Below are positions 8,741 to 51,287 of a DNA stretch of 64,000 nt, in pieces (position 1 is the first letter of the stretch; every line of letters begins with the position of its first letter). The position numbers were made by a program, and so were the translations under genes. The DNA is taken from NCBI GenBank assembly GCA_965217625.1, contig OZ244557.1:208082-272081 (forward strand), in the 5' to 3' direction. The notes beneath the pieces were generated by a model, which searched no databases, was not told where the DNA came from, and worked only from the letters and a program-made list of their open reading frames with translations. The DNA is from Dehalococcoidia bacterium. Its GTDB lineage: Bacteria > Chloroflexota > Dehalococcoidia > Bin125.

Positions 8741-8810
8741 GGATCACCTCGGTCCGTACACGTCGCCCCTGCCCAGGGACACCGTACCGCATCGGGGGCA
8801 GGATGGCACG

Positions 8811-9835
8811 CTAGGGCGGACAGTCCGGCAGACCGACCTCCCCCAGGTCATGGCGACGGACGTCGCGGAGCGACGGGGGGATGCAGCCGGTCAGGCCGGC
8901 GTTGCCGCTCAGCCGCAGCGACGTCAGGTCGGCGAGGGAGGCCAGCCCCGCGGGGATCGGGCCCGTGAGTTGGTTGCCGTCGAGGTGCAGGCGCTTGAGG
9001 CTGTGCAGGCCCGCGAACGAGGCGGGGATCGCGCCGCGCAGCTGGTTCCGCTCGAGCAACAGGTCGAGCACCTCGCTCAGCGACCCGAGCGCTGCCGGGA
9101 TGAGCCCGCTCAGCTGGTTGTCGTGCAGCGAGAGGAGTCGCAGGACGTCCAGCGACCCCAACTCGGCCGGGATGCGGCCCGTCAGCTGGTTCTCGTGCAG
9201 CAGCAGGGAAACCAAGCCGGAGAGCGATCCCAGCGCCGGCGGGATCGCGCCCGTCAGTTGGTTGTCGAAGAGCCACAGGCGCTTGAGGGCGGGCAACGCC
9301 CCCAGTTCCGCCGGGATGCGGCCCGTGAGTTGGTTGTCGTGCAGCCAGATCTCGCGCAGGCTGCGCAGCGACCCCAGCGCGGGCGGGATCGACCCGCTGA
9401 GCTGGTTGGCGTCGAGCCACAGCCGCTCCAGATGGCGCAGCGAGCCCAGCTCGGGCGGGATCGGCCCGGTGAGCCGGTTGTGGTGGAGGCCCAGCTCGCG
9501 AAACTCCCGGACGTTGCGAAGTGCGGCGCGATGCGGCCCGTGAGGCCGCGCGACCGCAGGTGCAGCTTCCACACGCGGGGCGGGTCGCCGCCCAGGCTGA
9601 CGCCGTCCCACTCGGCGATGGGCGTGTCGCCGCCCCAGTTGAGCGGCGTGCGGGCGCTGAACTGCGTCTTGGCGGCGAGCAGGTTGGCGCAGTCGATGAC
9701 GAGGCCGCGGTTGGCATCGGGGTCGGCGACGACGATGCCGTTCTCGCAGGTGGGGGGTGCGGCGTGGGTCGGGCCGGCCGCCAGGCCGGCGAACAGCAGC
9801 GTGGCGAACAAGAAGGAGAAGGCGCACTTGCGCAT
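8811..9835 (-). pseudogene. Third LRR paralog, disrupted by a single-base deletion (-1 frameshift) near 9527-9531, which splits it into ORFs 9254..9835 and 8811..9959
   Basis: The N-terminal ORF encodes the signal peptide MRKCAFSFLFATLLFAGLAAGPTHA and the same N-cap domain. It then runs out of frame after ...GLTGRI. The LRR and C-cap (SGNAGLTGCIPPSLRDV...LPDCPP) continue in another frame. Reconstructing GRIPAALRNV needs one inserted base. Confidence 0.6.
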
Positions 9836-10021
9836 GGATCACCTCGGTCCCGACGCCTCGCCCCTGCCCCGACAGCCTACCCCCAATCCGACGCCGCGCC
9901 GGGCGCGTACTCTCCTCATGAGTGCCCGCCCCCACGGCGACCACTTCCCCCACCGGCACGAGATGCGGTGATAACCTGCCCCCGACGACGGCGGACGGGG
10001 CCTACGAACGAGTGAGGATCG

Positions 10022-25736: not shown

Positions 25737-25771
25737 GACTTATCGCTAATAGCGACCGCGCTAGTTTTCGT

Positions 25772-26947
25772 TTGCGCGAATGGGGAAGTCCCGTGATCGC
25801 CACGACCGCCCTGGAGCGACGCCCCCATGGCCGCCGGGTCGCGTGCCCGGAGGGGTACCGCGCCTACGTCCCCGCCCCGCTCCCCCCGCCCCTCGCCTGG
25901 GACGGGGGGCTCATCGCCGCGCTGTCCGACGCCGACCGCACGGTCGGCGCCCTCGCCGGCGAGGGCCGCCGCCTGCCCAACCCCCACCTCCTGATCCGTC
26001 CCTTCGTGCGCCAGGAGGCGGTCCTGTCGAGTCGGATCGAGGGGACGCAGGCGACGCTCGGGGAGTTGCTGATCGCCGAGGCGGCCGCGCCGTATCACGC
26101 CGGGCCCGACGACGTCCATGAAGTCGCCAACTACGTGACCGCCCTGGAGTACGGCCTCCACCGCCTCGAGGCGCTGCCCCTGTCGCTGCGCCTCGTGCGC
26201 GAGCTGCACGACCGCCTCATGCGCGGCGTCCGTGGCGATGTCGCCGCGCCCGGGGAGTTCCGTCGCAGCCAGAACTGGATCGGGCGTCCCGGCTGCACGC
26301 TGAACGATGCGTCCTTCGTCCCGCCGCCGCCGGTGGAGCTGATGCCCTGCCTCGGCGCCTGGGAGCGCTACCTGCACGACGACGCGCTGCCGCCGCTGGT
26401 GCACGCGGGGCTGACCCACGCCCAGTTCGAGGCCATCCACCCTTTCCTCGACGGCAACGGCCGCGTGGGGCGTCTGCTGATCACGCTGCTGCTCGTCGAG
26501 CGGGACGTTCTCCCGTCGCCGCTGCTCTACCTCAGCGCCTACTTCGAGGCCACGCGCGACGAGTACTACGCGCGCCTCCTTGGCGTCACCGAGCGCGGCG
26601 AGTGGGAGGAGTGGCTGACCTACTTCCTGCGCGGCGTCGCGCTGCAGGCGCAGGACGCGCTGGACCGCATCCGCCGCATCGACGACCTGCTCGCCGGATG
26701 GAAGCAAGAGCTGCCCCCCGGCCGCTCCCGCGTCCCCCACCGCGCCCTCGACCTCTTCGCCGAGAACCCCTTCTGGACCGTGGCCGGCCTGGCCGGGCGT
26801 CTCGGCGTCGCTTTCACCACCGCCCAGCGCGCCATCGACCGCCTGGAGGCGGCGGGCGTCGTCGCCCGCGTCGGCGAGGCGCGTCGCAACCGTCTCTACT
26901 GCGCCGGCACCCTCCTCCGCGCGCTGGAGGAGCCGGTCGCCGGGTGA
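25772..26947 (+). CDS. fic: Fic-family protein, class II. It has an N-terminal Fic_N with the inhibitory motif SxxxEG, the HPFxDGNGRxGR active site and a C-terminal winged helix.
   Basis: HPFLDGNGRVGRLL is the Fic motif. VLSSRIEGT is the cis inhibitory helix. The annotated start is TTG at 25772; a GTG at 25793 is an alternative. Confidence 0.85.
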   Translation: MREWGSPVIATTALERRPHGRRVACPEGYRAYVPAPLPPPLAWDGGLIAALSDADRTVGALAGEGRRLPNPHLLIRPFVRQEAVLSSRIEGTQATLGELLIAEAAAPYHAGPDDVHEVANYVTALEYGLHRLEALPLSLRLVRELHDRLMRGVRGDVAAPGEFRRSQNWIGRPGCTLNDASFVPPPPVELMPCLGAWERYLHDDALPPLVHAGLTHAQFEAIHPFLDGNGRVGRLLITLLLVERDVLPSPLLYLSAYFEATRDEYYARLLGVTERGEWEEWLTYFLRGVALQAQDALDRIRRIDDLLAGWKQELPPGRSRVPHRALDLFAENPFWTVAGLAGRLGVAFTTAQRAIDRLEAAGVVARVGEARRNRLYCAGTLLRALEEPVAG

Positions 26948-27818: not shown

Positions 27819-28018
27819 GCATGCAGAATCGCAGCAATGACATCGATCCGCAAGCGCGACCCCCCTCGCCGGCCGAGGCGGTCGGGACGGCGGCCGCCCG
27901 AACGTGCCATAATCACCGCACGCGTCGGCGGCGTACGACTCCCCGGCATCCGCGACCGACTGGCCGCGGGCCCCCACCCGGGGGCGCAGCGACCGCCGCC
28001 CGGAGAGGTGGGCGACAG

Positions 28019-29539
28019 ATGTCCTCCGTACTGCGTGGCCTGACTGGATCGACACTCCTGCTGCTCCTCATCGCCGGCGCGATGCTCCTGACCACCGCCC
28101 AGGGCGCCGCGCAGGACCTCGACGAAGACGACGAGCCCGCCCCGCCGCCGATCCCCATCACCGGCGACGAACTCCGCAACCTCAGCTACCCCAACGAGTG
28201 GCCGGCCGACGGCGTCGCCCCCCTGACCGATGGCGTCTACACCGAGCCCATCCCCGATTCCGTCGCCCAGGTGCGCGTCGAGTTCCGGCGCGCCGCCTTC
28301 GGCGAGATCGACGGGCGGGCCGCGGCCGCCGTCGTCCTCGCGAGCAGCGGCGGCGGCACCGGGACCTTCTACGAGCTGCACGCCGTCACCCGCGATGAGG
28401 ACGGCGACCCCCGGTCCGTCGCGCGCCACCTCCTCGGCGACCGCATCGGCCTGCAGGGCCTCACCTTCGACGGCGATGTGGTCCGTGTCGACTTCATCGG
28501 CTTCGCCCCCGGCGACGGGGCCTGCTGCCCCACCCTCGCCGTGACCCAAGACTTCGGCCTCCGCGACGGCGAGTTGGTGTTCCTGCACGGGGCCGAATCG
28601 CCGGTCTGGCTGCCCCTCGCCCAGGGCTCCAGCTTCGTCTCCTGGTTCCGCGGGCCCACGACCTCGCGCGCCATCCTGGCCTCGGCCGGGTTGCTCGACC
28701 GCGTCTGGGTGCTCGACTCCAGCGACGGCAGATGGGTCCTCGACGCCCGCCATCCCGCCCCTGGCGCGGGCGCCCCGATCCTGGTCGAGCAGGGCAGCCA
28801 CCTCGTCCTCGTGGCCCGCGCCGCGACGAACGTGCCCGTGCTGCTGCTCCGCGCGCCCGACGCCTGCCCGCTCAACCCCGGGCCCCCCAACCCCGTCGAC
28901 CCCTCGATGATCGTCTACGGCCCGGGCAACGGTGAGACCTTCGCCGGCTCGGTGGCCGTCTCGGGCCTGGCCCGCGCCTTCGAGGCCAACGTCCGCCTGC
29001 GCGTCCTCGACGCCGGCGGCGCCGTCCTCGCCGACACCCACACCACCGCCGAGGTCGGCGGGCCCTACTTCGGCGCGTTCTCCGCCGACATCCCCGTCGA
29101 CGTCGCCGAGGAGACCGAGGCCTGCGTCCAGATCTTCGAGCAGTCCGCCCGCGACGGCCTCGACGTCAACGTCGTCCAGATCGGCGTCACCCTGCTGCCC
29201 GCCCTGCCCGCCGACTTCCCCGCCGCGCTGCTCTACCCCGGCGCCACGGTCGTCTCCGACAGCCGCTCCAGCAACGACGAGGGCGAGACCTTCGTCACCG
29301 CCCACCTGGCCGTCGACGCCGGCGCCGCCGACATCCTCGCGTTCTACGAGAGCGCCTTCGCCGCCCTCGACGCCCCCGGCCAGGTTTTCGATGGCTATAC
29401 GGGGCCCAACGACACCCCCGTCGTCTACCTCGCCCTGCAGGATGTCTCCTACGCCGCCCAAGCCATCATCCGCGAAGGCGCCGCCCCCGGCGGCGCCACC
29501 CTCGTCGAGGTGACGATCAACCTGGATCCGCCGGGCTAG
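28019..29539 (+). CDS. Secreted hypothetical protein with a C-terminal Gmad2-like Ig-like domain
   Basis: Signal peptide MSSVLRGLTGSTLLLLLIAGAMLLTTAQGAAQD. The C-terminal segment IVYGPGNGETFAGSVAVSGLARAFEANVRLRVLDAGGAVLADTHTTAEVGGPYFGAFSADIPV resembles the Gmad2 immunoglobulin-like domain. Confidence 0.5.
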   Translation: MSSVLRGLTGSTLLLLLIAGAMLLTTAQGAAQDLDEDDEPAPPPIPITGDELRNLSYPNEWPADGVAPLTDGVYTEPIPDSVAQVRVEFRRAAFGEIDGRAAAAVVLASSGGGTGTFYELHAVTRDEDGDPRSVARHLLGDRIGLQGLTFDGDVVRVDFIGFAPGDGACCPTLAVTQDFGLRDGELVFLHGAESPVWLPLAQGSSFVSWFRGPTTSRAILASAGLLDRVWVLDSSDGRWVLDARHPAPGAGAPILVEQGSHLVLVARAATNVPVLLLRAPDACPLNPGPPNPVDPSMIVYGPGNGETFAGSVAVSGLARAFEANVRLRVLDAGGAVLADTHTTAEVGGPYFGAFSADIPVDVAEETEACVQIFEQSARDGLDVNVVQIGVTLLPALPADFPAALLYPGATVVSDSRSSNDEGETFVTAHLAVDAGAADILAFYESAFAALDAPGQVFDGYTGPNDTPVVYLALQDVSYAAQAIIREGAAPGGATLVEVTINLDPPG

Positions 29540-29553
29540 CCCCGGCGTCGGTG

Positions 29554-29643
29554 TGGCGGAGGGGGAGGGATTCGAACCCCCGAGACGCTTGCGCGCCTAG
29601 CGGTTTTCAAGACCGCCGCCTTCAACCACTCGGCCACCCCTCC
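29554..29643 (-). tRNA. tRNA-Ser (anticodon TGA), 90 nt with a long variable arm
   Basis: The reverse complement gives GGAGGGGTGGCCGAGTGGTTGAAGGCGGCGGTCTTGAAAACCGC...GGGGGTTCGAATCCCTCCCCCTCCGCCA. The anticodon loop is CT-TGA-AA, the acceptor stem is 7 bp with a G discriminator, the T-loop is TTCGAAT and a CCA end is encoded. Confidence 0.9.
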
Positions 29644-29682
29644 GCGACCGTCGTTGCCGGCCCCCTCAGCCTACCCCGGCCG
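29624..29682. repeat. Left copy of a 59-bp imperfect direct repeat (54/59 identical to 33273-33331). It covers the first 20 nt of the tRNA-Ser 5' end plus upstream flank.
   Basis: AACCACTCGGCCACCCCTCCGCGACCGTCG(T/C)TG(CC/TT)GGCCCC(CT/AC)CAGCCTACCCCGGCCG read at both sites. Confidence 0.8.
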
Positions 29683-32600
29683 CGCCAAGATTCCCTGCCA
29701 ATCGGCGCTCTTATGAACGACCTCCTGTCTACGGAGGTCGATATGCTGGTCTTCGTGGGCGACCAAATCGAATGACGCCCGTTCCCACCGAATCACTGCG
29801 GGGGATGTGGGCAGGACACGGCGCTGCGACGGAGGCAAGCCATCTTCGACCGGCTTCATGGGGCCATCGAGCGAGCCATTCAAGAACCGCTGAACGGGCG
29901 GCTGTTCGAGCGGTGCGCGGTGGATCTCTTGCGCCAGAACTACTACCCGAAGCTGCGTCCCACCCCGGACGGATACGACACCGGCATAGATGGGATCGCT
30001 GGCCCGGATGCGGATCCGGAGTTCGTCCTGGTGGCCACGGTCGCGCAGGATCCCGCGCGCAATCTGAGGGGGAGCGTCAAGCGCCACGTAGATGCCGGTG
30101 GCCCGGGCCGGACCGTCGTATTCGCCACGTCGCAAGCGATCACCGTCGCGCGGCGGCGGCGGCTGGAAGAGGAGTTGAAGGACAAATTCGGGGCTCGGCT
30201 CCTCGCAGTGCATGACTGCGGTGACTTCGTCTGGATGCTCTACGACCACCCCCAGTGGCGGAAGGATCTGCTCGGTGTCGCGGGCGCAGCAAAGGCGCTT
30301 AGTCGATTCCCCGCCAACTCGCGGCCGACGCCTGCGGTCCCCTTGATCGGGCGCGATGCAGATCTCGAGCGACTGCAAGCCGTGACCGGCGATCTCCTAG
30401 TGGTGGGTAAGCCCGGCGTCGGCAAGACGTTCCTGCTGGAACAACTGGCGTCCGAGGGCTGGGGTCTCTTCGATGCGGGATGGGCCATCGACAAGCTTGA
30501 GGACGCCGTCCGGGAGATGAAGCCGCGGCGGGTCGTGGTCGACGACGCACATTTGAAGGGGGAGGACCGCATCCCCCAAGTCGTGAGGCTGCGTCGGGAG
30601 ATGAACGTCGACTTCGACATCGTGGGCGTCTCGTGGCCGGGCCAAGCTGACACCGTGTCGGGGCAGTTGCCCGAGGCGACGCGCTTCGACGTTGAAGAGC
30701 TGGAGCGTGACCAGATCGTCGAAGTGATTGAGCAAGCGGGCATTGGGGGCCCGCCGGAATTGCAGCGCACCATCGTCGATCAGGCCCGCGGCTGCGTGGG
30801 GCTGGCGGTCACACTCGCCCGCGCCTGCGTCGCGGGCAGGGTCCATGAAGTTGCGACGGGCGAAGCGCTCGTCGACGATCTCGTCCGATGGTATGAGCGA
30901 AGGCTGGGTTCAGAGAGTCGTCACATGCTCGGAGTGCTGGCGCTCGCGGGTGACGGCGGCGTGACCCTTGGGCAGGCTCGCGAGATCCTGGGCCTCACCG
31001 TACCTCAGAGCAGCAGCCTCATCCGCGGTCTGGCTTCGGGCGGCACCATTGATGAGGTTCCGTACCGCGCGCCGCGGATGCGGGTGCAGCCCGAAGCACT
31101 GCGCTATGCGCTGGTGCGAGACGTGTTCTTCGGCGGGCTCGGATCGCTGGATGCTGCCAGTGCCATCGATGGCCTCGACCCTCCTTCGGTTGCTGCGATC
31201 CCGCTCATCGGGGCGTCGCATCGTGGCGCGGATGTTGACCGCGGGCTGTTGCAGTCGATTGTTGATTGGAGCGATAAGAGAACTGCCGTGGAATACGCAT
31301 GTCTCGGCCCGGGTGAGTTCCAGACGGCGCTTGAGCAAGCGCCGACGCACCGCACGCCAGTCGCCGAGGCCGCGCTCAAGTTTGGAATCGATACCCGACG
31401 CGCGCTCCAGGTTCTCATGGGACAGGCTGTGGGTGATGATCGCTCCGAGCACAACACGCCCGAACACCCTCTCCGCATCGTCGGTGACCACCTCGCACGG
31501 AGAGAGACGCCATTCGAGGCGAGAAGGCTCGCCGTGGAGGTTGCGGACTCGTGGTTCAAGGAGGGAGGCGACGGCGAGGTCGGGGTCCGCGTGCTGATGC
31601 ACGCCGTGCGGTTGGAGCTGCACGGTGCGGTGCAGGATCCGGGGGTCGGGGACACACTCCGGATATACCGGGGGATGGTGCCCAAGCCGTGGATCGACGA
31701 GCTCTCGCGCCTCTGGGATTCGATCCTCGACATCTTCGATCGCGAGCCCAACCTGCTTCCCGCCCCTCTCCTGGACGCATTGCATCCTTGGGTTCAACCA
31801 AACACGGTTGTCCTCGGACGGGGGCTGGACGACGAGGCTTTCGTTGAGATCCGAAGAATCGCCGCCCGCGTAGTAGCGCGGCTGGCGGAGATATTCGGAG
31901 ATCGCCCAGGTGTGCTGCGCTCCCTGAATGAGCATGTGGAGCGTGGGAATATCCCGGTCCCGATCGAGTTGCCGGACTACTTCACAGTGCTTTTCCCGAA
32001 ACGCTGGGACGGTTCTGACGACGACGACGGGCTAGACGGGTGGCAGCGTCGGGCCGACGCGGGGGTGCGGCGCTTAGCGGAACAACTGCGCAAAGAGTCT
32101 ACCGACGACATCGCGGCGTTCATCGTAGGCGCAGACTCTCAGGCCGCCACGGCCGGAATCACGTACCCGCGTCACACGCCTCATCTCGCCAGAAGGCTCG
32201 CCGCAGACTCGGACTCGCCCGAAGCGTTGCTCGCCGCCCTGGAAGCGAGCACGGCGGCCCCTGACATCCTCCTGCCGCTCCTCGACCGCGTTGCTGAACT
32301 CCAGCGTCCGGGTTGGGAAGCAACCCTCGAACGTCTGCTCGCTGAGGATCGGGCGGCTTGGGTGCCTATCCAGGTCGCACTGACCCGCCCCTGCGACAAC
32401 CGGCTCAAACAGCTGGCGATCAAGCAGACTGGACCCTGGCTCAGTCTCATTGACAACCTCGTGATCATGGACCAGATCGAGCACGCGACGCTCGCGCTCC
32501 TCTTCGACGCGCCTGACGCCAGCGTTCGGAAACAAGCAGCGACGACGATAGGAAGCGTGGATTCTGGGTGCCGGCTCGAGAGCCTGTCTCCCTCCATGCT

Positions 32601-33272
32601 CTCGCGCTGGCGACAGATCATCGTGGACAGTCCCGCAGGCGACTACTGGTTCTCCGAAATCCTCAAGCACGACGATGAACTCTGCGCCGACTGGCTCCGG
32701 GCCTGGTTCAAGCGGTACGCCCAGGGCGAGTACGCATTCCTCCCGCGAGAAGTCAGCGCGGTGATCGCCAGCTTGCCCGCGGACGTCCGGGTCACGCTCA
32801 TCGGAGACGTGCCCGCCGACGCGCCACTGTCGCTGCTGCAGGACGCAGTCCGGAGTCTCGTGTCCCATGACCTTGACGTGATGATGGCTCTCTTTGACCG
32901 ACCCGAACTTGAGTGGCTGCATAGCGTCGCATTGCGGGGTGGGCCCAGCGAGGTCTGGATGGACCGCGCGCTAGCAGCTCTGGATCGCGGGTGGGAACCA
33001 GAGCGGATCGTCTCGGCAACGGAGTTCTCCGAAGCAGCATGGTTCGGTGAGGAGAGCCAGCATTGGCAGGGAAAGATTGACTCCTTCGCAGGTTTTCGTC
33101 AGAAGATGGGGGAGCCCCTCGATGCGCGGCAGGAGCGGATCATCGCGGCGGGAGTCGCCTACTTCGAGCGACACCGCGACGAAGCCGCTAAGCGTGAACA
33201 CCGCGAGCGTGTGTTCGGTCGGGGATCGTAGCAAGCAACGATGTCGAGGCCGGACTACTACCTAGCGTCCCC
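29644..33272. mobile_element. Roughly 3.6-kb low-GC genomic island inserted next to tRNA-Ser. It is bounded by att-like direct repeats and carries one giant ORF. No integrase is present.
   Basis: GC falls to about 60% against about 72% around it. The direct repeats duplicate the tRNA 5' end and the 3' end of the neighbouring phosphohexomutase gene. Confidence 0.5.
29920..33231 (+). CDS. Large island-encoded protein (at least 1103 aa) with an N-terminal Mrr-like (PD-(D/E)xK) restriction-endonuclease-like domain, a P-loop NTPase and a helical C-terminal region of about 800 aa. It is a candidate Avs/STAND-like defence protein. The true start is probably upstream, since the frame is open from 29776.
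   Basis: Mrr_cat-like FERCAVDLLRQNYYPKL...DTGIDGI. Walker A LLVVGKPGVGKTFLLEQLA. Walker B RRVVVDDAHL. The open frame continues upstream through ...AIFDRLHGAIERAIQEPLNGRL before reaching a TGA at 29773-29775. Confidence 0.6.
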   Translation: MDLLRQNYYPKLRPTPDGYDTGIDGIAGPDADPEFVLVATVAQDPARNLRGSVKRHVDAGGPGRTVVFATSQAITVARRRRLEEELKDKFGARLLAVHDCGDFVWMLYDHPQWRKDLLGVAGAAKALSRFPANSRPTPAVPLIGRDADLERLQAVTGDLLVVGKPGVGKTFLLEQLASEGWGLFDAGWAIDKLEDAVREMKPRRVVVDDAHLKGEDRIPQVVRLRREMNVDFDIVGVSWPGQADTVSGQLPEATRFDVEELERDQIVEVIEQAGIGGPPELQRTIVDQARGCVGLAVTLARACVAGRVHEVATGEALVDDLVRWYERRLGSESRHMLGVLALAGDGGVTLGQAREILGLTVPQSSSLIRGLASGGTIDEVPYRAPRMRVQPEALRYALVRDVFFGGLGSLDAASAIDGLDPPSVAAIPLIGASHRGADVDRGLLQSIVDWSDKRTAVEYACLGPGEFQTALEQAPTHRTPVAEAALKFGIDTRRALQVLMGQAVGDDRSEHNTPEHPLRIVGDHLARRETPFEARRLAVEVADSWFKEGGDGEVGVRVLMHAVRLELHGAVQDPGVGDTLRIYRGMVPKPWIDELSRLWDSILDIFDREPNLLPAPLLDALHPWVQPNTVVLGRGLDDEAFVEIRRIAARVVARLAEIFGDRPGVLRSLNEHVERGNIPVPIELPDYFTVLFPKRWDGSDDDDGLDGWQRRADAGVRRLAEQLRKESTDDIAAFIVGADSQAATAGITYPRHTPHLARRLAADSDSPEALLAALEASTAAPDILLPLLDRVAELQRPGWEATLERLLAEDRAAWVPIQVALTRPCDNRLKQLAIKQTGPWLSLIDNLVIMDQIEHATLALLFDAPDASVRKQAATTIGSVDSGCRLESLSPSMLSRWRQIIVDSPAGDYWFSEILKHDDELCADWLRAWFKRYAQGEYAFLPREVSAVIASLPADVRVTLIGDVPADAPLSLLQDAVRSLVSHDLDVMMALFDRPELEWLHSVALRGGPSEVWMDRALAALDRGWEPERIVSATEFSEAAWFGEESQHWQGKIDSFAGFRQKMGEPLDARQERIIAAGVAYFERHRDEAAKREHRERVFGRGS

Positions 33273-35211: not shown

Positions 35212-35463
35212 CTAGGTGAGCTTCGCGACTGCGACGGCGACGGCGGCGACGGCGACGGCGAAGCCGGCGAGCCGGAACAGGGCCGCGTAGATGTCGGCTC
35301 GCAGCGCCGCGATGTCCTCCCGCAGCGCTGCGACGTCGTCGCGCCCGGGCGCGACCGCTTCCCCGATCACTGCCGCGATCGTCTCGGCCGCGGCCGGCGG
35401 CTGATCCGCCTCGTCGCGGAGACGTTGGGCCGCCCTGAGGGTGTCGAACGCCATCGTACGCAC
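35212..35463 (-). CDS. DUF1640-family small coiled-coil protein with a C-terminal transmembrane helix
   Basis: MRTMAFDTLRAAQRLRDEADQPPAAAETIAAV... follows the DUF1640 pattern (xFDTLxxxxxLxxAG). C-terminal hydrophobic tail AGFAVAVAAVAVAVAKLT. Paralog of 50796-51287. Confidence 0.6.
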   Translation of the reverse strand: MRTMAFDTLRAAQRLRDEADQPPAAAETIAAVIGEAVAPGRDDVAALREDIAALRADIYAALFRLAGFAVAVAAVAVAVAKLT

Positions 35464-35498: not shown

Positions 35499-36929
35499 CT
35501 ACGCGCCGGCGCGGAACAGCGCGTTGGCCGACTCGGCCAGGGCCATGCGGTCGGTGACGGGCGGGCCCGCGACGGGCGGGTCCGCGTCGGGCCAGTAGCC
35601 CTCGGGCACGGTCCAGAAGCGCAGGACGCGCAGCCGTGGGTCGCCGGTCTCCGTGAGCCGCCGCCCGGCCTCGATGATCGCCTCGCCGAGCACCGTCTGC
35701 TTGAAGATCCAGTCGTTCAGCGCCCGGTGCGACGGCGCCTGCCCCGTCGCCAGCGCGCCCGGCTGCGCGACCACCGCCTCCTGGTAGTACGAGCGCAGGT
35801 CCTGCGCGACGTGGCGCAGCAGGTACGGCATCGGGTGGCCCCAGGCGACGCCGGCGCCCGCGTCGGGCACGCGGTCCAGCGCCGCGCCCTCGGCGACGGC
35901 GGCCAGCACCGCGGCCAGGGTCTCGGCGTGCGCCGGCACGTCGTCGCCGGCGACCGGGCCGCTGCCGCCCACGACGCTGCGGCCGCGGGCGCGGTGCGTC
36001 TCGCGCCACCAGGGCGCCAGGCCCTGGACCTCGGCCCGCAGCCGGCCGGCCAGCGTGTCGCTCTCGGGCGGCGCGAACGCGACGGGGCAGGCCCACGTAT
36101 CGGAGAACGACGCCGCCGGCGCGTCGATGGGGTAGTCGACGATGCCGTGCTCGCTCAGCGTCGGCAGCAGGTCGAGCGCCGCCCGCAGCACGTCGCGCTG
36201 GAAGCCGGGGTCGTCCGGCACGCCGAACGGGCGGCCCAGGTAGAACGACACCCACAGCGCCCGCGGCGGGTTCATCACCTCGCTGTGCTCGCGGATAAGC
36301 GAGATGCTGGTCGTCGCGACGCCCTCCCGCTCGATGAAGTGCGCCAGCGCACCCACGGTGCGCGTGCAGGCCGGTCAAACGGGCGCCAGCACCACGGCGT
36401 CGACGCCGTCCCGCTTGAGCAGCCGGCCCACCTCGCGCGCCGCCGGCTCGAGCCGCTCGGGCCGTGGCACGCCGCCCATGAACGAGTAGTGCCAGCGCGC
36501 CACCGCGCCGATCTCGCCCGCCGCGGCCAGCTCGCGCAGCCGCTCCAGCGGCAGCACGACGTTGGCGTCCTGCTCGAGCGCCGAGCGGTCCCAGTTCACG
36601 CTCACGTGCGAGCTGACCAGGTCGGCGAGGTCGACATCGCCGGGGATCAGGCGGTAGTCGATCGCGCCGGCGGCGAAGCGCGCGTCGTCGCGGCGGTGCA
36701 GCCCCGCCGTCGTGATCAGCGCGATGGTCGACTCGGCCAGCGGCTTGGGCGTGATCCAGTCGCCGGGCGCAATGCGGGTGGGCGGCATATCGCGCATGTG
36801 CTCGGCCTCTTCGGGGTGCAGATCGGACAGGCGGACCATGTGTGCTCCTCGCTGCCGCGGGCGCTCGGCCCGCGGCCGGTCCAGCATCGCACGCCCGGGC
36901 GGCCGGTTGTCAACCCGACCGCGTACCAT
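35499..36929 (-). CDS. Selenoprotein B homolog (glycine/sarcosine/betaine/D-proline reductase GrdB/PrdB family) with an in-frame TGA codon at 36375-36377. Predicted selenocysteine in the motif VVLAPV-U-PACTRT.
   Basis: Track ORFs 36375..36929 and 35499..36356 are in the same frame, separated only by TGA plus 6 codons. The joined sequence ...RLRELAAAGEIGAVARWHYSFMGG...GVDAVVLAPV[U]PACTRTVGALAHFIEREG aligns to the PrdB/GrdB Sec region (..GVDAVILTAG-U-GTCHR/CTRC..). A hairpin GCGCAC-cgugg-GUGCGC begins 12 nt after the UGA. Confidence 0.65.
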
Positions 36930-37088
36930 GCGTCCTCATGGGGATGAACGCCAGGCTCACTTCCGCCGCCGAGGCCTACTTCGAGGAACTTCGCCGCGTG
37001 CGCGCGTCGGGCGGCGCGACGGCGGAACGCTCCCGCTACCACAGTCGTGGAGTTCCTCACAGCCACAGTTCCGGCGGGCGAGAGAGCG

Positions 37089-37304
37089 CTAGTCCTCCTC
37101 GATCTCCCATGCGCCGAATGCAGCCACCTCGACCGAGCCCGTAGCGTCGAGACGGAAGACGTCGTCTTCGTCGGAGGAGAGGGCCCGGGCAGCCTCAATG
37201 CGCTCCTCGTCTGTGGCGTAGGGGCCGTGCAGTTCGGGCTCGACGCTTCCCCAGACATACAGTAGGTAGCGTTGCGTAACCTCGCCGTTCGCCTCTGTGG
37301 CCAT
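37089..37304 (-). CDS. Small acidic hypothetical protein (71 aa)
   Basis: Strong RBS (AAGGAG) 10 nt upstream of the ATG at 37304. Sits in a low-GC region immediately downstream of the 37322-38209 gene. The upstream extension of the track ORF is junk. Confidence 0.4.
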   Translation of the reverse strand: MATEANGEVTQRYLLYVWGSVEPELHGPYATDEERIEAARALSSDEDDVFRLDATGSVEVAAFGAWEIEED

Positions 37305-37321
37305 CCTGCTCTCCTTCCTCT

Positions 37322-38209
37322 TTACGCCGGAATCCGCTGATGCCAGCGGAACACGTCTGCGTTGGTCATGAAGCCGCACAGCTTGTCGAGGCCGCTCGCC
37401 TGGAACGTCGGACGACGGAGATTCCTCGCGAACACGCTGCGCCTCATCTCGTCGGCCACGATGGTGAACCTTGGCGGCTCTGTGAGGGACAGATGGACGT
37501 CGTTCATCCGCAACAGCCCAGAGTAGATTGGCGTCGAGTGTTCGACCTCGTACAGGCTGACTGGAGTGTTGGCGCCCCGCGCCATCCACACTACGTCGAT
37601 CTCACGCACCACGGAGTCGAGGCCCGGCGGCATCGTTGTCCGGAACGGAAACCGTGGCACAAGACTCCAGTCCATCTTCTGGCGATCGTTCGGTGGAACC
37701 CACACGTCGAGGCCCCGGGCATCGCCGATCGCACCCAGTAGCGTCTGCACTTGTGAGTGATCGAGAGCCGGCGCCTCGTCTCGGGCGTCTGCCAGTGCGC
37801 CGAGCAGCGCCTCCCAGCCGAAGTACGCCTCGACATTGTGACGTCCGGCTCGCGCGATGTAGAACTCGGTGGGTTGGCTGTCGTGGATGTAGACCTGCGC
37901 CTTGACTTGGCCGTCGGCAGCCGGTCCAGCTTCGTCGAAGAGCTCGCCGAAGTGAGCCAGCGGGAGCAGCAACGGCTCAACCTGTCCGTCCCACAGCAGC
38001 GCGATAAACGCCGTCCGCCCATCGAGTTCTCGCAAGTCCTGCTCGCGGAGACCATAGAAGGTGTTGCCCTTTTCGTAGACGCGTGAGTAGCGCACGTACA
38101 CGAGCGTCTGCCCGTCGCCGAGTTCGAACAGCGATCGACTGTTACCCAGTCGCTTCAGCTGCCCCGCTCGTTCGGAGAGCTCCCGCAGAAACGCTTCGCG
38201 TGGCTTCAT
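37322..38209 (-). CDS. Hypothetical protein (295 aa), a possible PD-(D/E)xK-type nuclease (motifs LDVWVP / EIDVVW...YEVEHS)
   Basis: Low-GC (about 60%) gene. The start is placed at MKPREAF. No confident family assignment; the nuclease-like motif is weak. Confidence 0.4.
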   Translation of the reverse strand: MKPREAFLRELSERAGQLKRLGNSRSLFELGDGQTLVYVRYSRVYEKGNTFYGLREQDLRELDGRTAFIALLWDGQVEPLLLPLAHFGELFDEAGPAADGQVKAQVYIHDSQPTEFYIARAGRHNVEAYFGWEALLGALADARDEAPALDHSQVQTLLGAIGDARGLDVWVPPNDRQKMDWSLVPRFPFRTTMPPGLDSVVREIDVVWMARGANTPVSLYEVEHSTPIYSGLLRMNDVHLSLTEPPRFTIVADEMRRSVFARNLRRPTFQASGLDKLCGFMTNADVFRWHQRIPA

Positions 38210-38536
38210 GCTCCTGACGATACCGCGAACCTGCTGCCCAGCGCACGGTCGGCAGCGCGCCGAGATTCTTGTCGACGCGGGTATCGTCAAGATTGCTGAT
38301 CAGTGCAGGCCATGCTCGAAGTGCGAGACGATTCGGTTGCGCATCTTCGGCCCCCGCTCACGGAACACCGGAAAGAGGCTCGACCGCCCCCGACCCCGCC
38401 CCGCTCCCGCGCCACCGCCCGACGCCCGTCGCATCGCGGCGATCGTCGGGCTGGTGGCGTCGGGCTGACCCCCGCCCCGGCTCCGTCGTCGCTCCCACCC
38501 CCGGGCGCGCGATAGACTTGACGAGCGGAGGACGGA

Positions 38537-38842
38537 ATGGCCGAGCAGGCTCTCAGCAGCAGCGACACGCTGGCCCTCCTACGGGCGCACAAGCCGGTGC
38601 TGGCCGAGCGTTTCGGCGTGTCCGGCCTCGCGCTGTTCGGCTCCACCGTCCGCGACGAGGCGGGGCCGGACAGCGACATCGACATCCTCGTGAGCTTCAC
38701 GCGGCCTCTCGGGTCGAAGCGGTACTTCGGCGCCTGGCACTACATCGAGGACCTGCTCGGCCGCCCGATCGACTTCGTCACGGACAGGGAATTGCGCCCG
38801 GAGCTACGGCCCTACGTTGAAGCTGAGGCGGTGCATGTCTGA
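38537..38842 (+). CDS. Minimal nucleotidyltransferase (MNT-type, antitoxin half of HEPN/MNT pairs), apparently orphaned
   Basis: GSTVRDEAGPDSDIDILV is the nucleotidyltransferase GS...D.D motif. Only a 38-codon ORF (38835-38951) overlaps its stop, and it is not convincingly HEPN. Confidence 0.75.
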   Translation: MAEQALSSSDTLALLRAHKPVLAERFGVSGLALFGSTVRDEAGPDSDIDILVSFTRPLGSKRYFGAWHYIEDLLGRPIDFVTDRELRPELRPYVEAEAVHV

Positions 38843-38928
38843 GCCGCGCTGGGATCTGTACGTGCGCGACGCCACCCTGAGCTCCGAAGGAGTGATAGAC
38901 TTAGCAACCAGCGAACGGGAAGGGTGCG

Positions 38929-39204
38929 ATGGTAGCCATGACGACGACTGACCTCAGCGCTCGCGTGACAGTCCTCAGCGATCACGTGACAGTCCTCAGC
39001 GATCACCTGACAGTCCTCAGTGATCGCGTGACAGGCCTCAGCGATCGCGTAACGCACGTTGAAGCATCGATCAGGCATCTCGCGACCAAGACCGACCTCG
39101 CCCAGGCGGAAACGCGGCTCACCCGCTGGACGGTCGCGACCATGCTTGCCGGCATGGCCGCCGCCGCGGCGATCGCCGCGGCCGTCGCCGCCCTCGCCGG
39201 CTAG
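38929..39204 (+). CDS. Small heptad-repeat protein (VTVLSDH x5) with a C-terminal TM helix. DUF1640-like C-terminus (LATKTDLAQAETRLTRW...).
   Basis: It is encoded across a 21-bp tandem DNA repeat. The C-terminus resembles the DUF1640 paralogs in this window. Confidence 0.35.
   Translation: MVAMTTTDLSARVTVLSDHVTVLSDHLTVLSDRVTGLSDRVTHVEASIRHLATKTDLAQAETRLTRWTVATMLAGMAAAAAIAAAVAALAG
38952..39060. repeat. About five tandem copies of a 21-bp unit (GTGACAGTCCTCAGCGATCAC and variants)
   Basis: Read directly. The copies differ by 1-2 nt each. Confidence 0.8.
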
Positions 39205-39239
39205 GACGCCGACACGCCCCAGCGCGCCCGGCCCCGCCC

Positions 39240-40958
39240 CTACGAATCCGCGGCGACCCCCGGCACGACCTCCACTTCGATGTCGTCCAGGAACGCCTCC
39301 GCCGGGTCGTCGCCGCCGTCCGACTCCGCCTCCGTCGGCACCCCGAACGCCTCCCCGAACTGCCGAAGCAACACGAACTGGTCGCCGTACTTGATGGCCC
39401 CCGCCGTGTTCTGCGCCGAGGCCAGCAGCAGCGTGTCCCGCATCGGCGAACTCGTGCGCCGGTAGTCCTGCAGGATGCACAGCCCGATCTCCTGGTTGTG
39501 CGGGTCGTTGCCGTGCTTCGCCGCCGCCACGGCCAGCGTCTGCACGAGCCGGTCGCGGTCGTGGTCCCCGTCCAGGTAGGCCTGCGTCCAGTCGATGCTC
39601 TCGTCGAGCTCCGTGGCCAGCAGCGCCGCCTCGAGCCGGCGCAGGATCTGCGGCCCCGAGAGCCGGTCCGACCCCTTCGGCGGCATCGCCTGCCGCGGGC
39701 CGTTCGGCACCCCGTCCATGACGACCATGGCGTCCGTCGAGCGGATGTGCCGCGCCGCCTGATTGATGAAGTTGGCCGCCACGAAGAGCAGCTTCGTGCG
39801 GTGCGGATGGTCGAAGCGGTCGTAGAACCAGTTGACCATGTTGCAGTATTCCATCGTGTGATGCGGCATCGAGAAGGCGTGCGGCGCCCGGGTCTCCAGC
39901 AGCACCCGCGCCGACGCGATCTGGATCGCGTCCATGATCGTGCGCGGCGACCGCCCGGCTCGCAGCAGCCCCACCAGCGGCTCGATGAAGTGCGCCTCGT
40001 CGCCGCGCAGGATCGCGTGGATCAGCGCCTCCGCCTCCGGCTGCGAGACCGGCGTCGTGTTGGCGAACAGGCGGCGGTCGGTGCCGGTCGCCACCGTGGC
40101 GGCCAGCGTCGACTCCGGCGCCTCCTCCTCCAGCTCGTTCAGCATGATCTGGCAGGCCGCCTCGAAGCTCGAATACCAGCGCGGGCCCACCGCCAGGTCG
40201 GGCACCGCCGCGTAGATCACGTGGTGCGCGTGCTCCCAGCCGATCGCCCGCCCCAGCTCGATCAACGACCGCTGGCGGTACGCCTTGTGCCCCGTCGTGT
40301 ACGACCGGTTCCAGATCATCCGGTCCTGCACGTCCATCAGCCCGGTGAACATCGTGTGCGCCAGCAACTCCTCGCGCCGGCCCCACAACTCCCACAGCCC
40401 CAGCCACAGCCGGTACGCCTCGTCCACCCGGCCCCACTCGACCAGCCGCTGCCAGCGCTCCACTTCCTCCTCGAAGCTGCCCTCCAGCGCCGCCGGCTCC
40501 TGGTCCTCCCAATGCACGACCGGCATCGCCGGGCCGTCGGGGTGCGCCGATGGGTCGTACGTGCGGCGCGCGTAGTGCCCCGGCATCTTGCCCAGCAGCT
40601 GGTTCCAGATGTCGAGCGAGCTGGGCACGTACCACGCGGTCTGCGCCAGCGGCAGGTGCCGCAGCGACTCCGGCATGAAGTCCTGCAACGACAGCGTCGC
40701 CCGCGCACTCAGCAGCGCGTGGTCGTTGTTGACGAAGCGCACGAAGCCGCCATCCATGCGCTGGTGGTAGGGCACATGCGTGTAGGGCGCGTGGATGCGC
40801 ACTGTCTCGCTGAGGATCTCCGTCGTCGGCCGGCCGTCCTGGATGAGGTCGAACGTGACCGCGCTCGCCCCCGCCGAGTCGCGCTCCAGCACGTGCTCCC
40901 GCAACTGCTCGTACTTGCCCGCGGTCTCACGGTCGGTGATCGATGGGGAGAGCGCCAT
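39240..40958 (-). CDS. Conserved-looking hypothetical protein (572 aa), His-rich with a possible metal-binding role. No family recognised.
   Basis: Long clean ORF with genome-typical codon usage. Contains HAPYTHVPYH, WEHAHHV, MPHHTMEY and FDHPHRTK motifs. Lies directly upstream, same strand, of the alcohol dehydrogenase gene. Confidence 0.5.
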   Translation of the reverse strand: MALSPSITDRETAGKYEQLREHVLERDSAGASAVTFDLIQDGRPTTEILSETVRIHAPYTHVPYHQRMDGGFVRFVNNDHALLSARATLSLQDFMPESLRHLPLAQTAWYVPSSLDIWNQLLGKMPGHYARRTYDPSAHPDGPAMPVVHWEDQEPAALEGSFEEEVERWQRLVEWGRVDEAYRLWLGLWELWGRREELLAHTMFTGLMDVQDRMIWNRSYTTGHKAYRQRSLIELGRAIGWEHAHHVIYAAVPDLAVGPRWYSSFEAACQIMLNELEEEAPESTLAATVATGTDRRLFANTTPVSQPEAEALIHAILRGDEAHFIEPLVGLLRAGRSPRTIMDAIQIASARVLLETRAPHAFSMPHHTMEYCNMVNWFYDRFDHPHRTKLLFVAANFINQAARHIRSTDAMVVMDGVPNGPRQAMPPKGSDRLSGPQILRRLEAALLATELDESIDWTQAYLDGDHDRDRLVQTLAVAAAKHGNDPHNQEIGLCILQDYRRTSSPMRDTLLLASAQNTAGAIKYGDQFVLLRQFGEAFGVPTEAESDGGDDPAEAFLDDIEVEVVPGVAADS

Positions 40959-42615: not shown

Positions 42616-43608
42616 TCAAGCGTCCCCCGTGCGACCGTAGTGCTCGCGGTCCGTGTCGGTCACTCCGTATCCGACACCCAACTCGATCCTCGATGCCACC
42701 GACAACTGCCGAACAGCATCGAGATCCTCGGTGGGAGTGTCACGTGTTTCCCCATACCAGCCCTCGTATAAGTCGCCGATCTCTGCGTTGAGCACCCGAC
42801 TAAGCGCCAGAAAGACCGTAGGGGCGTCATTCGCTATTTCCCGCACCCGGGTGCCCACGGCGCTCGACAGTTCGCCCAACTCGGGCTCCTGGTCAACACG
42901 ACTGACGAACGAATCGAACGTGCGCCAGCCCTCGTTCTGATCCGTTACGGCATGGCGCGCGAGTGCGCCCTGCAAGGAGCCGGTGACTCCGAGACCCCAG
43001 GGCTGCGGCAACAGCTTCCACACTTGGTCTTCGCGTTCGTGCGAGGAGAGCACGATGCCCGGTACGAGTTCGCTTGATCGGAGCGGGTTAGAGCGGCTCC
43101 GCACGGAGTCGAACAACACAGTGTAGCGACAGATATCGTAGAACGCCTCGACTTCACGTTCGGCGAGGAATGAGATCAACTCCTGGGTCGGTTCCACTTG
43201 CGCAATGACGTCGCCGATCGTGCGCAACGTCGCTCCGAGGTCTCCGCAGACGGCGGCCAGTGGAGCGAGGTATGCCGGCACGTATCGGTCAAGGCGGTCT
43301 CTGAACGCCATTGTGATCTTGAACGCTTGCTCTCTTCTCAGCCGCTCAGCCTTGTATGCGTGGTGGAGGCTCGTTCCGACGATCGAGAGCAGCGGCGTGA
43401 GCACACCCGTGACGACCACTGCCTTTGCCGTTTCATGACCCTGGTCTGGGAACAAGAGATCCCATGTGGCGAGGAAGAGAATCGCTACCACGAGCGATGC
43501 CAGCACCGAAAGCGTGATCGGTGCTGCATACGCACTCAGAGTGGAGCGGATTCTCCTCACCGTGTCTCCGGAAGTCCTGCCACTGTTGGGTTGGTGGCCC
43601 CCGACCAA
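42616..43608 (-). CDS. Hypothetical membrane protein (two N-terminal TM helices plus a cytoplasmic domain), low-GC
   Basis: Hydrophobic segments ITLSVLASLVVAILFLATW and AVVVTGVLTPLLSIVGTSL. No family recognised. GC is about 58%. Confidence 0.4.
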   Translation of the reverse strand: MVGGHQPNSGRTSGDTVRRIRSTLSAYAAPITLSVLASLVVAILFLATWDLLFPDQGHETAKAVVVTGVLTPLLSIVGTSLHHAYKAERLRREQAFKITMAFRDRLDRYVPAYLAPLAAVCGDLGATLRTIGDVIAQVEPTQELISFLAEREVEAFYDICRYTVLFDSVRSRSNPLRSSELVPGIVLSSHEREDQVWKLLPQPWGLGVTGSLQGALARHAVTDQNEGWRTFDSFVSRVDQEPELGELSSAVGTRVREIANDAPTVFLALSRVLNAEIGDLYEGWYGETRDTPTEDLDAVRQLSVASRIELGVGYGVTDTDREHYGRTGDA

Positions 43609-44130
43609 GTTCTGGCGCGAGAAGCGCTCGCCAGCTCTGAAGTGTCGGGCCTTACTGACGTGGTTGCCGGAGCGATGGTTGGGGAGGCGGCGTTCGGCGC
43701 GGTGGCGGAGCGGCTGGCGTCCGGGGTACAGGCCGCGGGGCCGGTGGCGGTACCCCTCGTGTGTAGGGGATGGGCCTCGGGGCCGGCGGAGGCGGCGGAT
43801 TCTCGGCCGATGGTGCTTGCACTGTCACTCCGACCCCCTTCTCTTTCCAGCGTCCTTGCCACTCGGACTGCCCGATTTCGGGACCGGGCGGGGCGGCGGC
43901 GGTGGCGCGCTGTCCCCGAGCCGTGTGGGCTTGGCGTCCCCGCCTTTGTTCGCCATCATCCCACTTTACTTCTTCGGAGGAGGCGGAGGAGGTTCTTGCG
44001 GTTTCGGGATCGGTCGCGGACTAGAGGGGTGAAGGGACCTCTCTTCGATCTCCAGCTCGGGTCTTGGATTCGGCATGATCGCAGGGTAGACCAGAGCGAC
44101 GCGACGGCGGCCTCGTTCTGTCACGACCCC

Positions 44131-50795: not shown

Positions 50796-51287
50796 CTAGG
50801 TGAGCTTCACGATGGCGACGGCGACGGTGGCGACCGCGACGGCGACGGCGACGACGAAGCCGGCGAACCGCAACTGGAGCGCGTACATCTCCGCGCGCAG
50901 GGCCTGCAGGCCCTCCCGCAGTTCGCCGCGCAGCGCCGCCGCGTCTTCGCGCAGTTCCCCCCGCAGCGCCGCCGACTCTGCGCGCAGTTCCCCCCGCAGC
51001 GCGGACATGTCCTCGCGCAGCGCTGCCGTCTCTGCGCGCAACTCCCCCCGCAGCGCGGACATGTCCTCGCGCAGGCCCGCGATGTCTGCGCGGAGCGCCC
51101 CCGTCTCTTCGCGCAGTTCGCCGCGCAACTCTCCCACGTCGTTGCGCAGCGCGTCCACGTCGTCACGGCCCGGCGCGAACGCGTCCCCGATCACGGCCGC
51201 GATCGTCTCGGCCGCGGCCGGCGGCTGGTCCGCCTCGTCGCGGAGCCGTTGGGCTGCCCGGAGGGTGTCGAACGTCACGATGTGCAC
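50796..51287 (-). CDS. DUF1640-family coiled-coil/TM protein with an internal tandem expansion of ALRGELR(A/E)xxAALRED repeats
   Basis: The N-terminal 45 aa are near-identical to 35212-35463. The middle holds ALRGELRAETAALREDMS-type 11-aa repeats. It ends in the same hydrophobic tail. The DNA-level tandem repeat is at about 50927-51107. Confidence 0.6.
   Translation of the reverse strand: MHIVTFDTLRAAQRLRDEADQPPAAAETIAAVIGDAFAPGRDDVDALRNDVGELRGELREETGALRADIAGLREDMSALRGELRAETAALREDMSALRGELRAESAALRGELREDAAALRGELREGLQALRAEMYALQLRFAGFVVAVAVAVATVAVAIVKLT

Follow-up and report, generated by a model that had tools for sequence, protein, structure and literature searches.

Two adjoining open reading frames of a Dehalococcoidia genome, separated by an in-frame UGA, very probably form one selenoprotein gene of the GrdB/PrdB superfamily

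The stretch of DNA considered here, a window of 64,000 nucleotides (nt) from contig OZ244557.1 of a Dehalococcoidia bacterium (assembly GCA_965217625.1), carries on its minus strand, at positions 35499–36839, what is very probably a single gene; its product would be a selenoprotein of 446 residues within the GrdB/PrdB superfamily, an in-frame UGA would direct the insertion of selenocysteine (Sec) into it, and it is proposed to act as a stand-alone reductase. The complete gene comprises 446 codons, including the one for Sec155, and a TAG stop codon at 35499–35501. The UGA occupies 36375–36377 on the minus strand, a position at which related genes have a conserved TGA and some homologues have a cysteine codon. 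A preliminary description of the window had already read two neighbouring open reading frames (ORFs) as one gene for a selenoprotein of this kind, and that reading holds: the two translate in the same frame with a coding signal on both sides of the UGA, TGA was found at this codon in 90 of 90 relatives with Cys at the same column in rare homologues, the codons that bridge the two ORFs are constrained, and a hairpin downstream of the UGA is under selection.

The two ORFs, 36375–36929 and 35499–36356, both on the minus strand, share one frame with nothing but the TGA at 36377–36375 between them. Translated over this codon the window reads ...GVDAVVLAPV*PACTRTVGALAHF..., and the joined minus-strand reading frame around the stop is ...GVDAVVLAPV*PACTRTVGALAHFIEREG..., which places Sec in the context VVLAPV-U-PACTRT. 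The genome is about 70% GC, and the GC content of third codon positions (GC3) is as expected for real coding sequence in both parts of the gene, at 0.92 upstream of the TGA and 0.99 downstream. When all TGA triplets in the window were scanned, 36375–36377 was the only one with a strong coding signal on both sides; apparent in-frame stops at 2637 and 54181, where pairs of ORFs abut, were set aside as ordinary gene boundaries. A tblastn search of the joined protein against the window returned a single continuous match, from 36839 to 35514, and the window holds this one copy only.

Translation is taken to start at the ATG at 36839 (MVRLSDL...), since homologous N-terminal fragments of 154–156 amino acids (aa) cover the region from 36839 onwards at 100%, and similarity at the DNA level to the nearest relative, the locus designated L001, stops at 36858. 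The letters of the sequence also suggest a Shine-Dalgarno-like GAGGAG at 36845–36850 on the minus strand, 5 nt upstream of the ATG. With this start the N-terminal part has 154 aa, so that Sec becomes residue 155 with 291 residues after it. The preliminary description had begun the gene at 36929 and given it an N-terminal part of 184 aa, neither of which stands.

To follow the UGA through related genes, one genome per GTDB species was scanned, which yielded 587 relatives, and the Sec column was located in the best 79 loci. The related genes come from metagenome-assembled genomes (MAGs) of Dehalococcoidia/Chloroflexota, Acidimicrobiales and Pseudomonadales/Azotimanducaceae (Gammaproteobacteria), and their proteins are 35–93% identical. 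Close orthologues lie on the complete chromosomes CAXXCV010000001.1 (88% identity), OZ250140.1, OZ244584.1 and OY760135.1. In every gene in which the column could be read, whether orthologue or paralogue, the codon was TGA: 74 of 74 genes in a first motif search and 90 of 90 with a looser motif. Rare full-length homologues have Cys at the same column, namely P0017 (VCLLCT), P0055 (VCPACT), and P0077 and P0103 (both VCPFCH). The comparison of Cys with Sec homologues that the preliminary description had called for as a check has come out in its favour, with homologues showing either Cys or TGA at the site, and the comparative data effectively refute a pseudogene.

Database proteins carry the imprint of the same codon. 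A search with the joined protein returned more than 110 clusters of 245–300 aa, nearly all of which start at query residue 162 or slightly later, residue 162 being the first usable start past the TGA in the window gene; a search with the N-terminal part returned 973 proteins, and the best 120 of these are almost all 154–156 aa long, consistent with a stop at the position of the TGA. The lengths and starts of the fragments on either side therefore indicate that gene callers split this gene everywhere. From the UGA to the next Val there are six codons, and these show constraint on the protein sequence: they include an invariant Pro and an invariant Cys and vary mostly at third positions, with entropies of 0.66, 0.32 and 1.06 at the first, second and third codon positions over 84 distinct sequences. 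The Pro and Cys are Pro156 and Cys158 of a U-P-A-C redox motif that runs from Sec155 to Cys158 (36366–36377, minus strand), and both are invariant across the same 84 sequences. The conservation of protein sequence on both sides of UGA155 and across the bridge establishes, as far as comparison of sequences can, that the codon is translated.

Shortly downstream of the UGA, at 36347–36363 on the minus strand, lies a predicted hairpin that resembles a selenocysteine insertion sequence (SECIS), with a stem of 7 base pairs (bp) and a loop of the form G-U-N, starting 11 nt past the UGA. Numbered from the U of the UGA it spans +15 to +31, with nucleotides 15–21 paired to 25–31, and G22 and U23 of the loop are invariant among related genes. 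In the window gene the stem has 6 bp, one of them A-U, and can be extended to 7 bp through C21-G25 to leave a GUG triloop. The location and the 6-bp stem are as the preliminary description had them, with the corrections that the hairpin begins 11 rather than 12 nt past the UGA and that the stem, with its one A-U pair, does not consist entirely of G-C pairs. A bacterial SECIS is a stem-loop shortly downstream of the UGA with a G in its apical loop, and the hairpin has this form; with its stem beginning 11 nt and its loop 18 nt past the UGA, and with the G in the loop, it also fits what is described for bacterial SECIS elements.

The support for this hairpin comes from covariation and from a control at synonymous sites. 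Over the 84 distinct sequences 86.6% of the cells are paired, versus 43–61% when the 3′ partners are slid out of register, and changes on both sides of a pair occur in 49 cells versus 18 in shuffled data, with none of 500 shuffles reaching the observed count. When codons were resampled synonymously according to the usage of each gene, 4.18 of the 7 pairs were expected (standard deviation of the mean 0.12) and 6.0 were observed; the window hairpin itself, with 7 of 7 pairs, has P = 0.002 in the same control. Five of the seven pairs link a third codon position to a first one. Because pairing exceeds the synonymous expectation and most pairs have this geometry, selection appears to act on the RNA structure beyond what the protein demands, and the comparison demonstrates that the predicted hairpin is kept by selection at synonymous sites, at a position that fits a bacterial SECIS. 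Its apical loop, the GUG at 36354–36356, is also the start that ORF finders pick for a downstream "hypothetical protein", and many database entries begin exactly at that Val because the loop has been taken for a start codon.

Two of the explanations that compete with Sec insertion would do away with translation of the UGA altogether. Under one, a Cys codon (TGC or TGT) has mutated to TGA and the gene is either dead or yields only a fragment of 154 residues, which would agree with the way this gene is divided at the UGA everywhere, by gene callers as well as in public annotation, and with the lack of Sec machinery in the window. Against this stand a TGA shared by all 90 relatives in three phyla, purifying selection on both halves and on the bridge, and the GC3 of 0.99 in the downstream half; it is not credible that every lineage independently acquired a nonsense mutation at one and the same codon, and we regard the chance of a pseudogene as negligible. 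Under the other, a short PrdB-like protein ends at the UGA and an independent "hypothetical protein" is re-initiated a few codons further on. The window does offer a GTG 18 nt past the TGA, which ORF callers use as a start, but of the 84 distinct sequences only 25 have a GTG, and with it a possible start, at the next in-frame Val codon; the other 59 have GTC, GTT or GTA, none of them start codons. Moreover, the six bridge codons encode the invariant Pro and Cys and vary at their third positions, the Cys homologues are single continuous proteins, and the site lies inside both the alignment to the PrdB profile and the predicted alpha/beta domain, neither of which breaks there, all of which makes a two-gene arrangement extremely improbable. 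With the TGA universal, the bridge codons constrained and the Val rarely a start codon, both of these arrangements can be taken as excluded.

A third explanation grants translation of the UGA and doubts only the amino acid, which could be supplied by a near-cognate Trp, Cys or Gly tRNA or by a suppressor tRNA if the organism lacked a sel system. Several observations that favour it, or otherwise weigh against Sec insertion and a stand-alone role, have to be set beside the evidence above. Neither selA, selB, selD nor a tRNA-Sec was found in the window or in 82 related loci. ARAGORN reported no tRNA-Sec in the window and the related loci examined, and a tblastn search with an approximate E. coli SelD query found nothing in the same sequences, both results being uninformative about the whole genome; with these genes absent from the sequence examined, the capacity of the organism to decode Sec is something that we infer. 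The only tRNA in the window is Ser-UGA and not a tRNA for Sec, as the preliminary description had pointed out. The hairpin, in turn, does not separate Sec from Cys forms, because the hairpin retains 6 of 7 pairs past the TGC codon in both Cys homologues examined, P0017 (L080, 6030–7139) and P0055 (L082, 36–941); this could reflect a recent conversion of Sec to Cys, or part of the pairing could be imposed by the protein sequence. The 71 nt that follow the UGA do not fold into an unusually stable structure when compared with shuffled sequences (z = +0.8), so the support for the hairpin is comparative rather than thermodynamic, and an Rfam search matched no family, SECIS or other. For the protein itself, no solved structure and no biochemical data were found for any family member; its catalytic cycle and stand-alone status are likewise points that we infer, and the gene for a partner could lie in another part of the genome.

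Set against read-through by another tRNA is the pairing of UGA with Cys alone at a UxxC redox motif, which is the standard signature of Sec, together with a hairpin at SECIS distance that is selected at synonymous sites. Other genes in the window, that for aspartyl-tRNA synthetase among them, also use UGA as their normal stop codon, so that an altered genetic code is not the explanation. In addition, two independent surveys scored the family as selenoproteins with SECIS elements. Taken together, we consider insertion of an amino acid other than Sec very unlikely.

The Sec-containing protein that results is homologous to GrdB and PrdB, in line with the family assignment of the preliminary description, without scoring as a member of either characterized group. 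The Pfam GRDB model (PF07355) matches residues 32–152 with 42 bits, above its gathering threshold of 22, and covers profile positions 221–345 of 347, which is the part of the model that ends at Sec. The best NCBIfam model is that of PrdB (TIGR04483), which aligns residues 31–232 to profile positions 24–225 of 238 in an alignment that runs through the UGA; at 115 bits it remains below the curated equivalog cutoff of 300. The selenoprotein B subfamily model TIGR01918 likewise stays under its cutoff, with 55.7 bits versus 65.45 over positions 211–370 of 431.

Structurally, the window protein was approached through an AlphaFold model of the Cys homologue P0017, which is 43% identical and stands in for it (predicted local distance difference test score, pLDDT, 93.1; predicted template modelling score, pTM, 0.90). 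The model has a Rossmann-like alpha/beta core in which the CxxC motif, corresponding to UxxC in the window protein, lies between the strand at 114–118 and the N-terminus of the helix at 122–137, and after the core comes a helical domain with helices between 232 and 361. Transferred to the window gene, the PrdB-like alpha/beta core would occupy approximately residues 1–240 (36120–36839, minus strand) and a helical C-terminal domain approximately residues 262–415 (35595–36056, minus strand), the latter placed by the helices of the P0017 model and by matches within the family only; a clade-specific tail follows it down to 35502 on the same strand. The C-terminal region (residues 262–446) has no Pfam or NCBIfam match, and in a search of 1.84 billion representative proteins this domain was confined to its own family. 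Conserved residues include Arg183, Arg193 and Arg203, a PPRALWVPFxLGRP block, Cys251 (in WACP), and the motifs RGRT, EAxxAQPG and VPEG.

A scheme for synthesis and catalysis can be proposed on this basis. SelB and Sec-tRNA(Sec) would bind the hairpin and insert selenocysteine at UGA155, so that the Sec of the U-P-x-C motif would sit where a helix of the Rossmann-like alpha/beta domain begins. On the model proposed for PrdB and GrdB, Sec155 would serve as the nucleophile that attacks the substrate, after which Cys158 would resolve it as a selenenylsulfide and a cellular dithiol such as thioredoxin would reduce the enzyme again.

What such an enzyme does is bound up with whether it has a partner. 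A genuine B subunit of D-proline reductase, or of glycine, betaine or sarcosine reductase, with PrdA or GrdA/E/C encoded elsewhere in the genome, would agree with the finding that PrdB TIGR04483 is the best family model and is covered over nearly its whole length, and with the name PrdB that annotation and the published surveys give to the family. The scores nonetheless fall short of the cutoffs, far short in the case of the 300-bit equivalog threshold, and PrdB has no counterpart of the conserved C-terminal domain, which adds about 200 residues. Although prd and grd genes are normally operonic, none lies within about 6 kb of the gene in the window or in the 79 loci from three phyla, and the hosts are marine heterotroph lineages with aerobic tricarboxylic acid cycle genes rather than Stickland fermenters. 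A role as B subunit therefore seems unlikely to us. The protein would most likely be a stand-alone selenol/thiol reductase and not the B subunit of a D-proline reductase, a role favoured because it has a helical C-terminal domain of its own and because no PrdA, GrdE or GrdA is linked to it in three phyla. The broader proposal that the long form of the marine "PrdB" is in general a self-contained selenoenzyme, with a UxxC core, a private helical domain and no pyruvoyl partner, which has multiplied in aerobic Dehalococcoidia of the SAR202 type, is more tentative, and we put it at somewhat less than an even chance.

Copies of the gene do occur side by side. Several Dehalococcoidia/Chloroflexota loci have two or three paralogues in tandem, and every one of these has a TGA and a hairpin of its own; the loci are L046 (TGA at 4892, 7082 and 8478), L044, L047, L048, L056, L062, L065, L067, L069 and L071–L073. 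Distant extra copies occur on some chromosomes, for example on OZ242281.1 (L044 and L045) and OZ244584.1 (L003 and L052).

The window as a whole is an ordinary piece of chromosome, with genes for trigger factor, ClpP, ClpX, SdhA, aconitase, fumarase, malate dehydrogenase, aspartyl-tRNA synthetase and an ABC transporter, and the selenoprotein gene is flanked by a phosphomannomutase-type gene downstream and by unannotated ORFs. When all ORFs within 6 kb of the target were clustered over the 79 loci, the only universal neighbours were the two halves of the gene itself, and the neighbours of the window gene were common to L001 only. None of the genes for PrdA, GrdA, GrdE, GrdC and GrdD was present in the window or among the conserved neighbours of the 79 loci, which upholds the earlier statement that partner genes are lacking nearby. 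Conserved neighbours were also considered as a clue to function and rejected, as they amounted to lineage-specific synteny, with short-chain dehydrogenase/reductase (SDR) and enoyl-CoA hydratase genes that vary in distance and orientation.

The interval 36859–39221 (about 2.4 kb), which adjoins the start of the selenoprotein gene on its upstream side, is absent from L001, where a gene for a 572-aa protein abuts the target. It encodes an ORF of 295–322 aa (37322–38290, minus strand), with a weak PADLOC match to a type II restriction enzyme (E = 1.2e-6), and a small ORF. The interval is probably a strain-specific insertion, so that the promoter of the target may differ from that of the relative. 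The 572-aa protein itself (39240–40958, minus strand) has a high coding signal and no Pfam, NCBIfam or PADLOC match; in L001 it is 92% conserved, with its gene directly preceding that of the selenoprotein in the same orientation, and no other homologue was found in the 82 loci. On the other side of the gene, just downstream, an 83-aa ORF (35212–35463, minus strand) has no family match and is not found beside the selenoprotein gene in other loci; a partial copy of it, 76% identical, lies about 16 kb away at 51114–51287 on the minus strand.

Other parts of the window deserve brief mention. The tRNA-Ser(UGA) gene at 29554–29643 is followed by a stretch of lower GC content (0.655) that reaches to 33271 and holds a 1103-aa ORF (29920–33231, plus strand) with only weak AAA_16 and weak PADLOC mad8 matches; the DNA of L001 differs there, and 29554–33271 has the look of an island associated with the tRNA gene. 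A gene for a Fic/DOC protein (25739–26947, plus strand) with a Fic_N domain and a weak match to a MarR-type helix-turn-helix is found some 2.6 kb from this tRNA gene, and between the two lies an ORF with a Gmad2 domain (27821–29539). A further segment of about 1.5 kb, 42617–44124, is absent from L001 and includes a 330-aa ORF (42616–43608, minus strand) with no family match. Three leucine-rich-repeat (LRR) proteins are encoded at 1–522, 5834–8743 and 8811–10001, one of them of 969 residues with very strong LRR matches. Eukaryote-like repeat proteins such as these are common in sponge-associated bacteria, and the isolate names of several related loci (IRC, RHO and SB bins) resemble those of sponge-metagenome bins.

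The practical consequence concerns annotation. Public MAGs contain hundreds of orthologues that, like this gene, appear as a truncated "PrdB" of about 154 aa next to a "hypothetical protein" of about 250–290 aa, and each such pair should be joined as one selenoprotein. Nothing in this will surprise a specialist in selenoproteins, and its value lies in the corrected annotation. The family is among the most abundant selenoproteins of surface-ocean metagenomes, and the window gene offers a handle on its function: a chromosomal copy from a high-GC member of the Dehalococcoidia, together with a confident structural model, supplies a defined construct with which to express the protein and screen substrates. 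"Proline reductase" is probably a misleading name, given that no PrdA is linked, that there is an extra domain and that the hosts are aerobic. Were the long form truly a self-contained selenoenzyme, the multiplication of paralogues would point to diversification of substrates, for instance towards the reductive cleavage of small nitrogenous or osmolyte compounds in seawater, a Sec-dependent chemistry undescribed in aerobes.

By its sequence, the window gene is a member of the marine "PrdB (UxxC)" selenoprotein family catalogued in 2005 and 2008, with which it shares pfam07355, the UxxC motif and a marine source. The Sargasso Sea survey of 2005 (Zhang, Fomenko and Gladyshev, PMC1088965) lists "Proline reductase PrdB" with a UxxC motif and 42 genes as the third most abundant selenoprotein family, and the Global Ocean Sampling (GOS) survey of 2008 (Zhang and Gladyshev, PMC2398784) gives 235 Sec and 110 Cys members of PrdB, pfam07355. 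The words "hidden" and "orphan" in the preliminary description consequently overstate the novelty, as these surveys already present the subfamily as Sec-containing PrdB with UxxC, and annotation pipelines, too, already label the N-terminal halves, truncated as they are, as PrdB or as members of the selenoprotein B family. Within the supplement of the 2005 survey (PMC1088965), AACY01068648 is a Sec-containing PrdB with the sequence VPVuPICTGAVGALSNFIERSGVATASISLIRE...PPRALWVPF...WVCPVSF...EAVASQPG...IPEGY; it matches window residues 153–415 with 48% identity over 263 residues (E = 9e-81), an alignment that spans Sec, the UxxC motif and the C-terminal domain. AACY01791542 has near-identical DNA around the TGA, CCCGTC TGA CCTCGCTGCACGCGCGCCGTCGGCGCGCTG. 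The searched passages of both surveys contained nothing on the host taxa, on the C-terminal domain or on the lack of PrdA, and an incomplete literature search returned no paper that deals with what the marine form does, with its additional domain, with the lack of PrdA or with its spread in Chloroflexota of the SAR202 type. The marine surveys worked from short anonymous reads, whereas the window gene sits in 64 kb of chromosomal context from a high-GC organism like the Dehalococcoidia.

Compared with the characterized reductases, the window protein shares a core and differs around it. "Proline reductase" selenoproteins have also been described in the non-clostridial Anaeromyxobacter and Geobacter. 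With the D-proline reductase PrdB of Clostridium sticklandii and C. difficile it has a homologous core and Sec in a UxxC motif at the equivalent place, but it carries in addition the helical domain of about 200 residues, has no adjacent prdA, prdC, prdD, prdE or prdF, and comes from a family with aerobic marine hosts rather than from Stickland fermenters; prdA-prdB and grdA-grdB are normally operonic. With selenoprotein B of glycine, sarcosine and betaine reductase (GrdB/GrdF/GrdH; TIGR01917/01918) it has the GRDB domain in common, yet it lacks the N-terminal 200 or so residues of GrdB, scores below all the NCBIfam cutoffs and has no grdA, grdE, grdC or grdD nearby. The GrdB motif, moreover, is described as UxxCxxC, whereas that of the window protein is UPxCT with no third Cys at +6. 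The core also recurs in short PrdB-like proteins, of about 245 aa and with either Cys or Sec (for example P0077, P0103 and P0078, and AACY01424071 from the Sargasso Sea with LLVPSuGLCNQTVG), which have the same core with U/CxxC at the same position and are 39–42% identical to window residues 1–232, but which end after the core without the helical C-terminal domain and have the motif CPFCHQ or uGLCNQ instead of uPxCT(R/G). What the marine surveys call "PrdB" pools at least two architectures, this short form of about 245 aa and a long form like the window gene.

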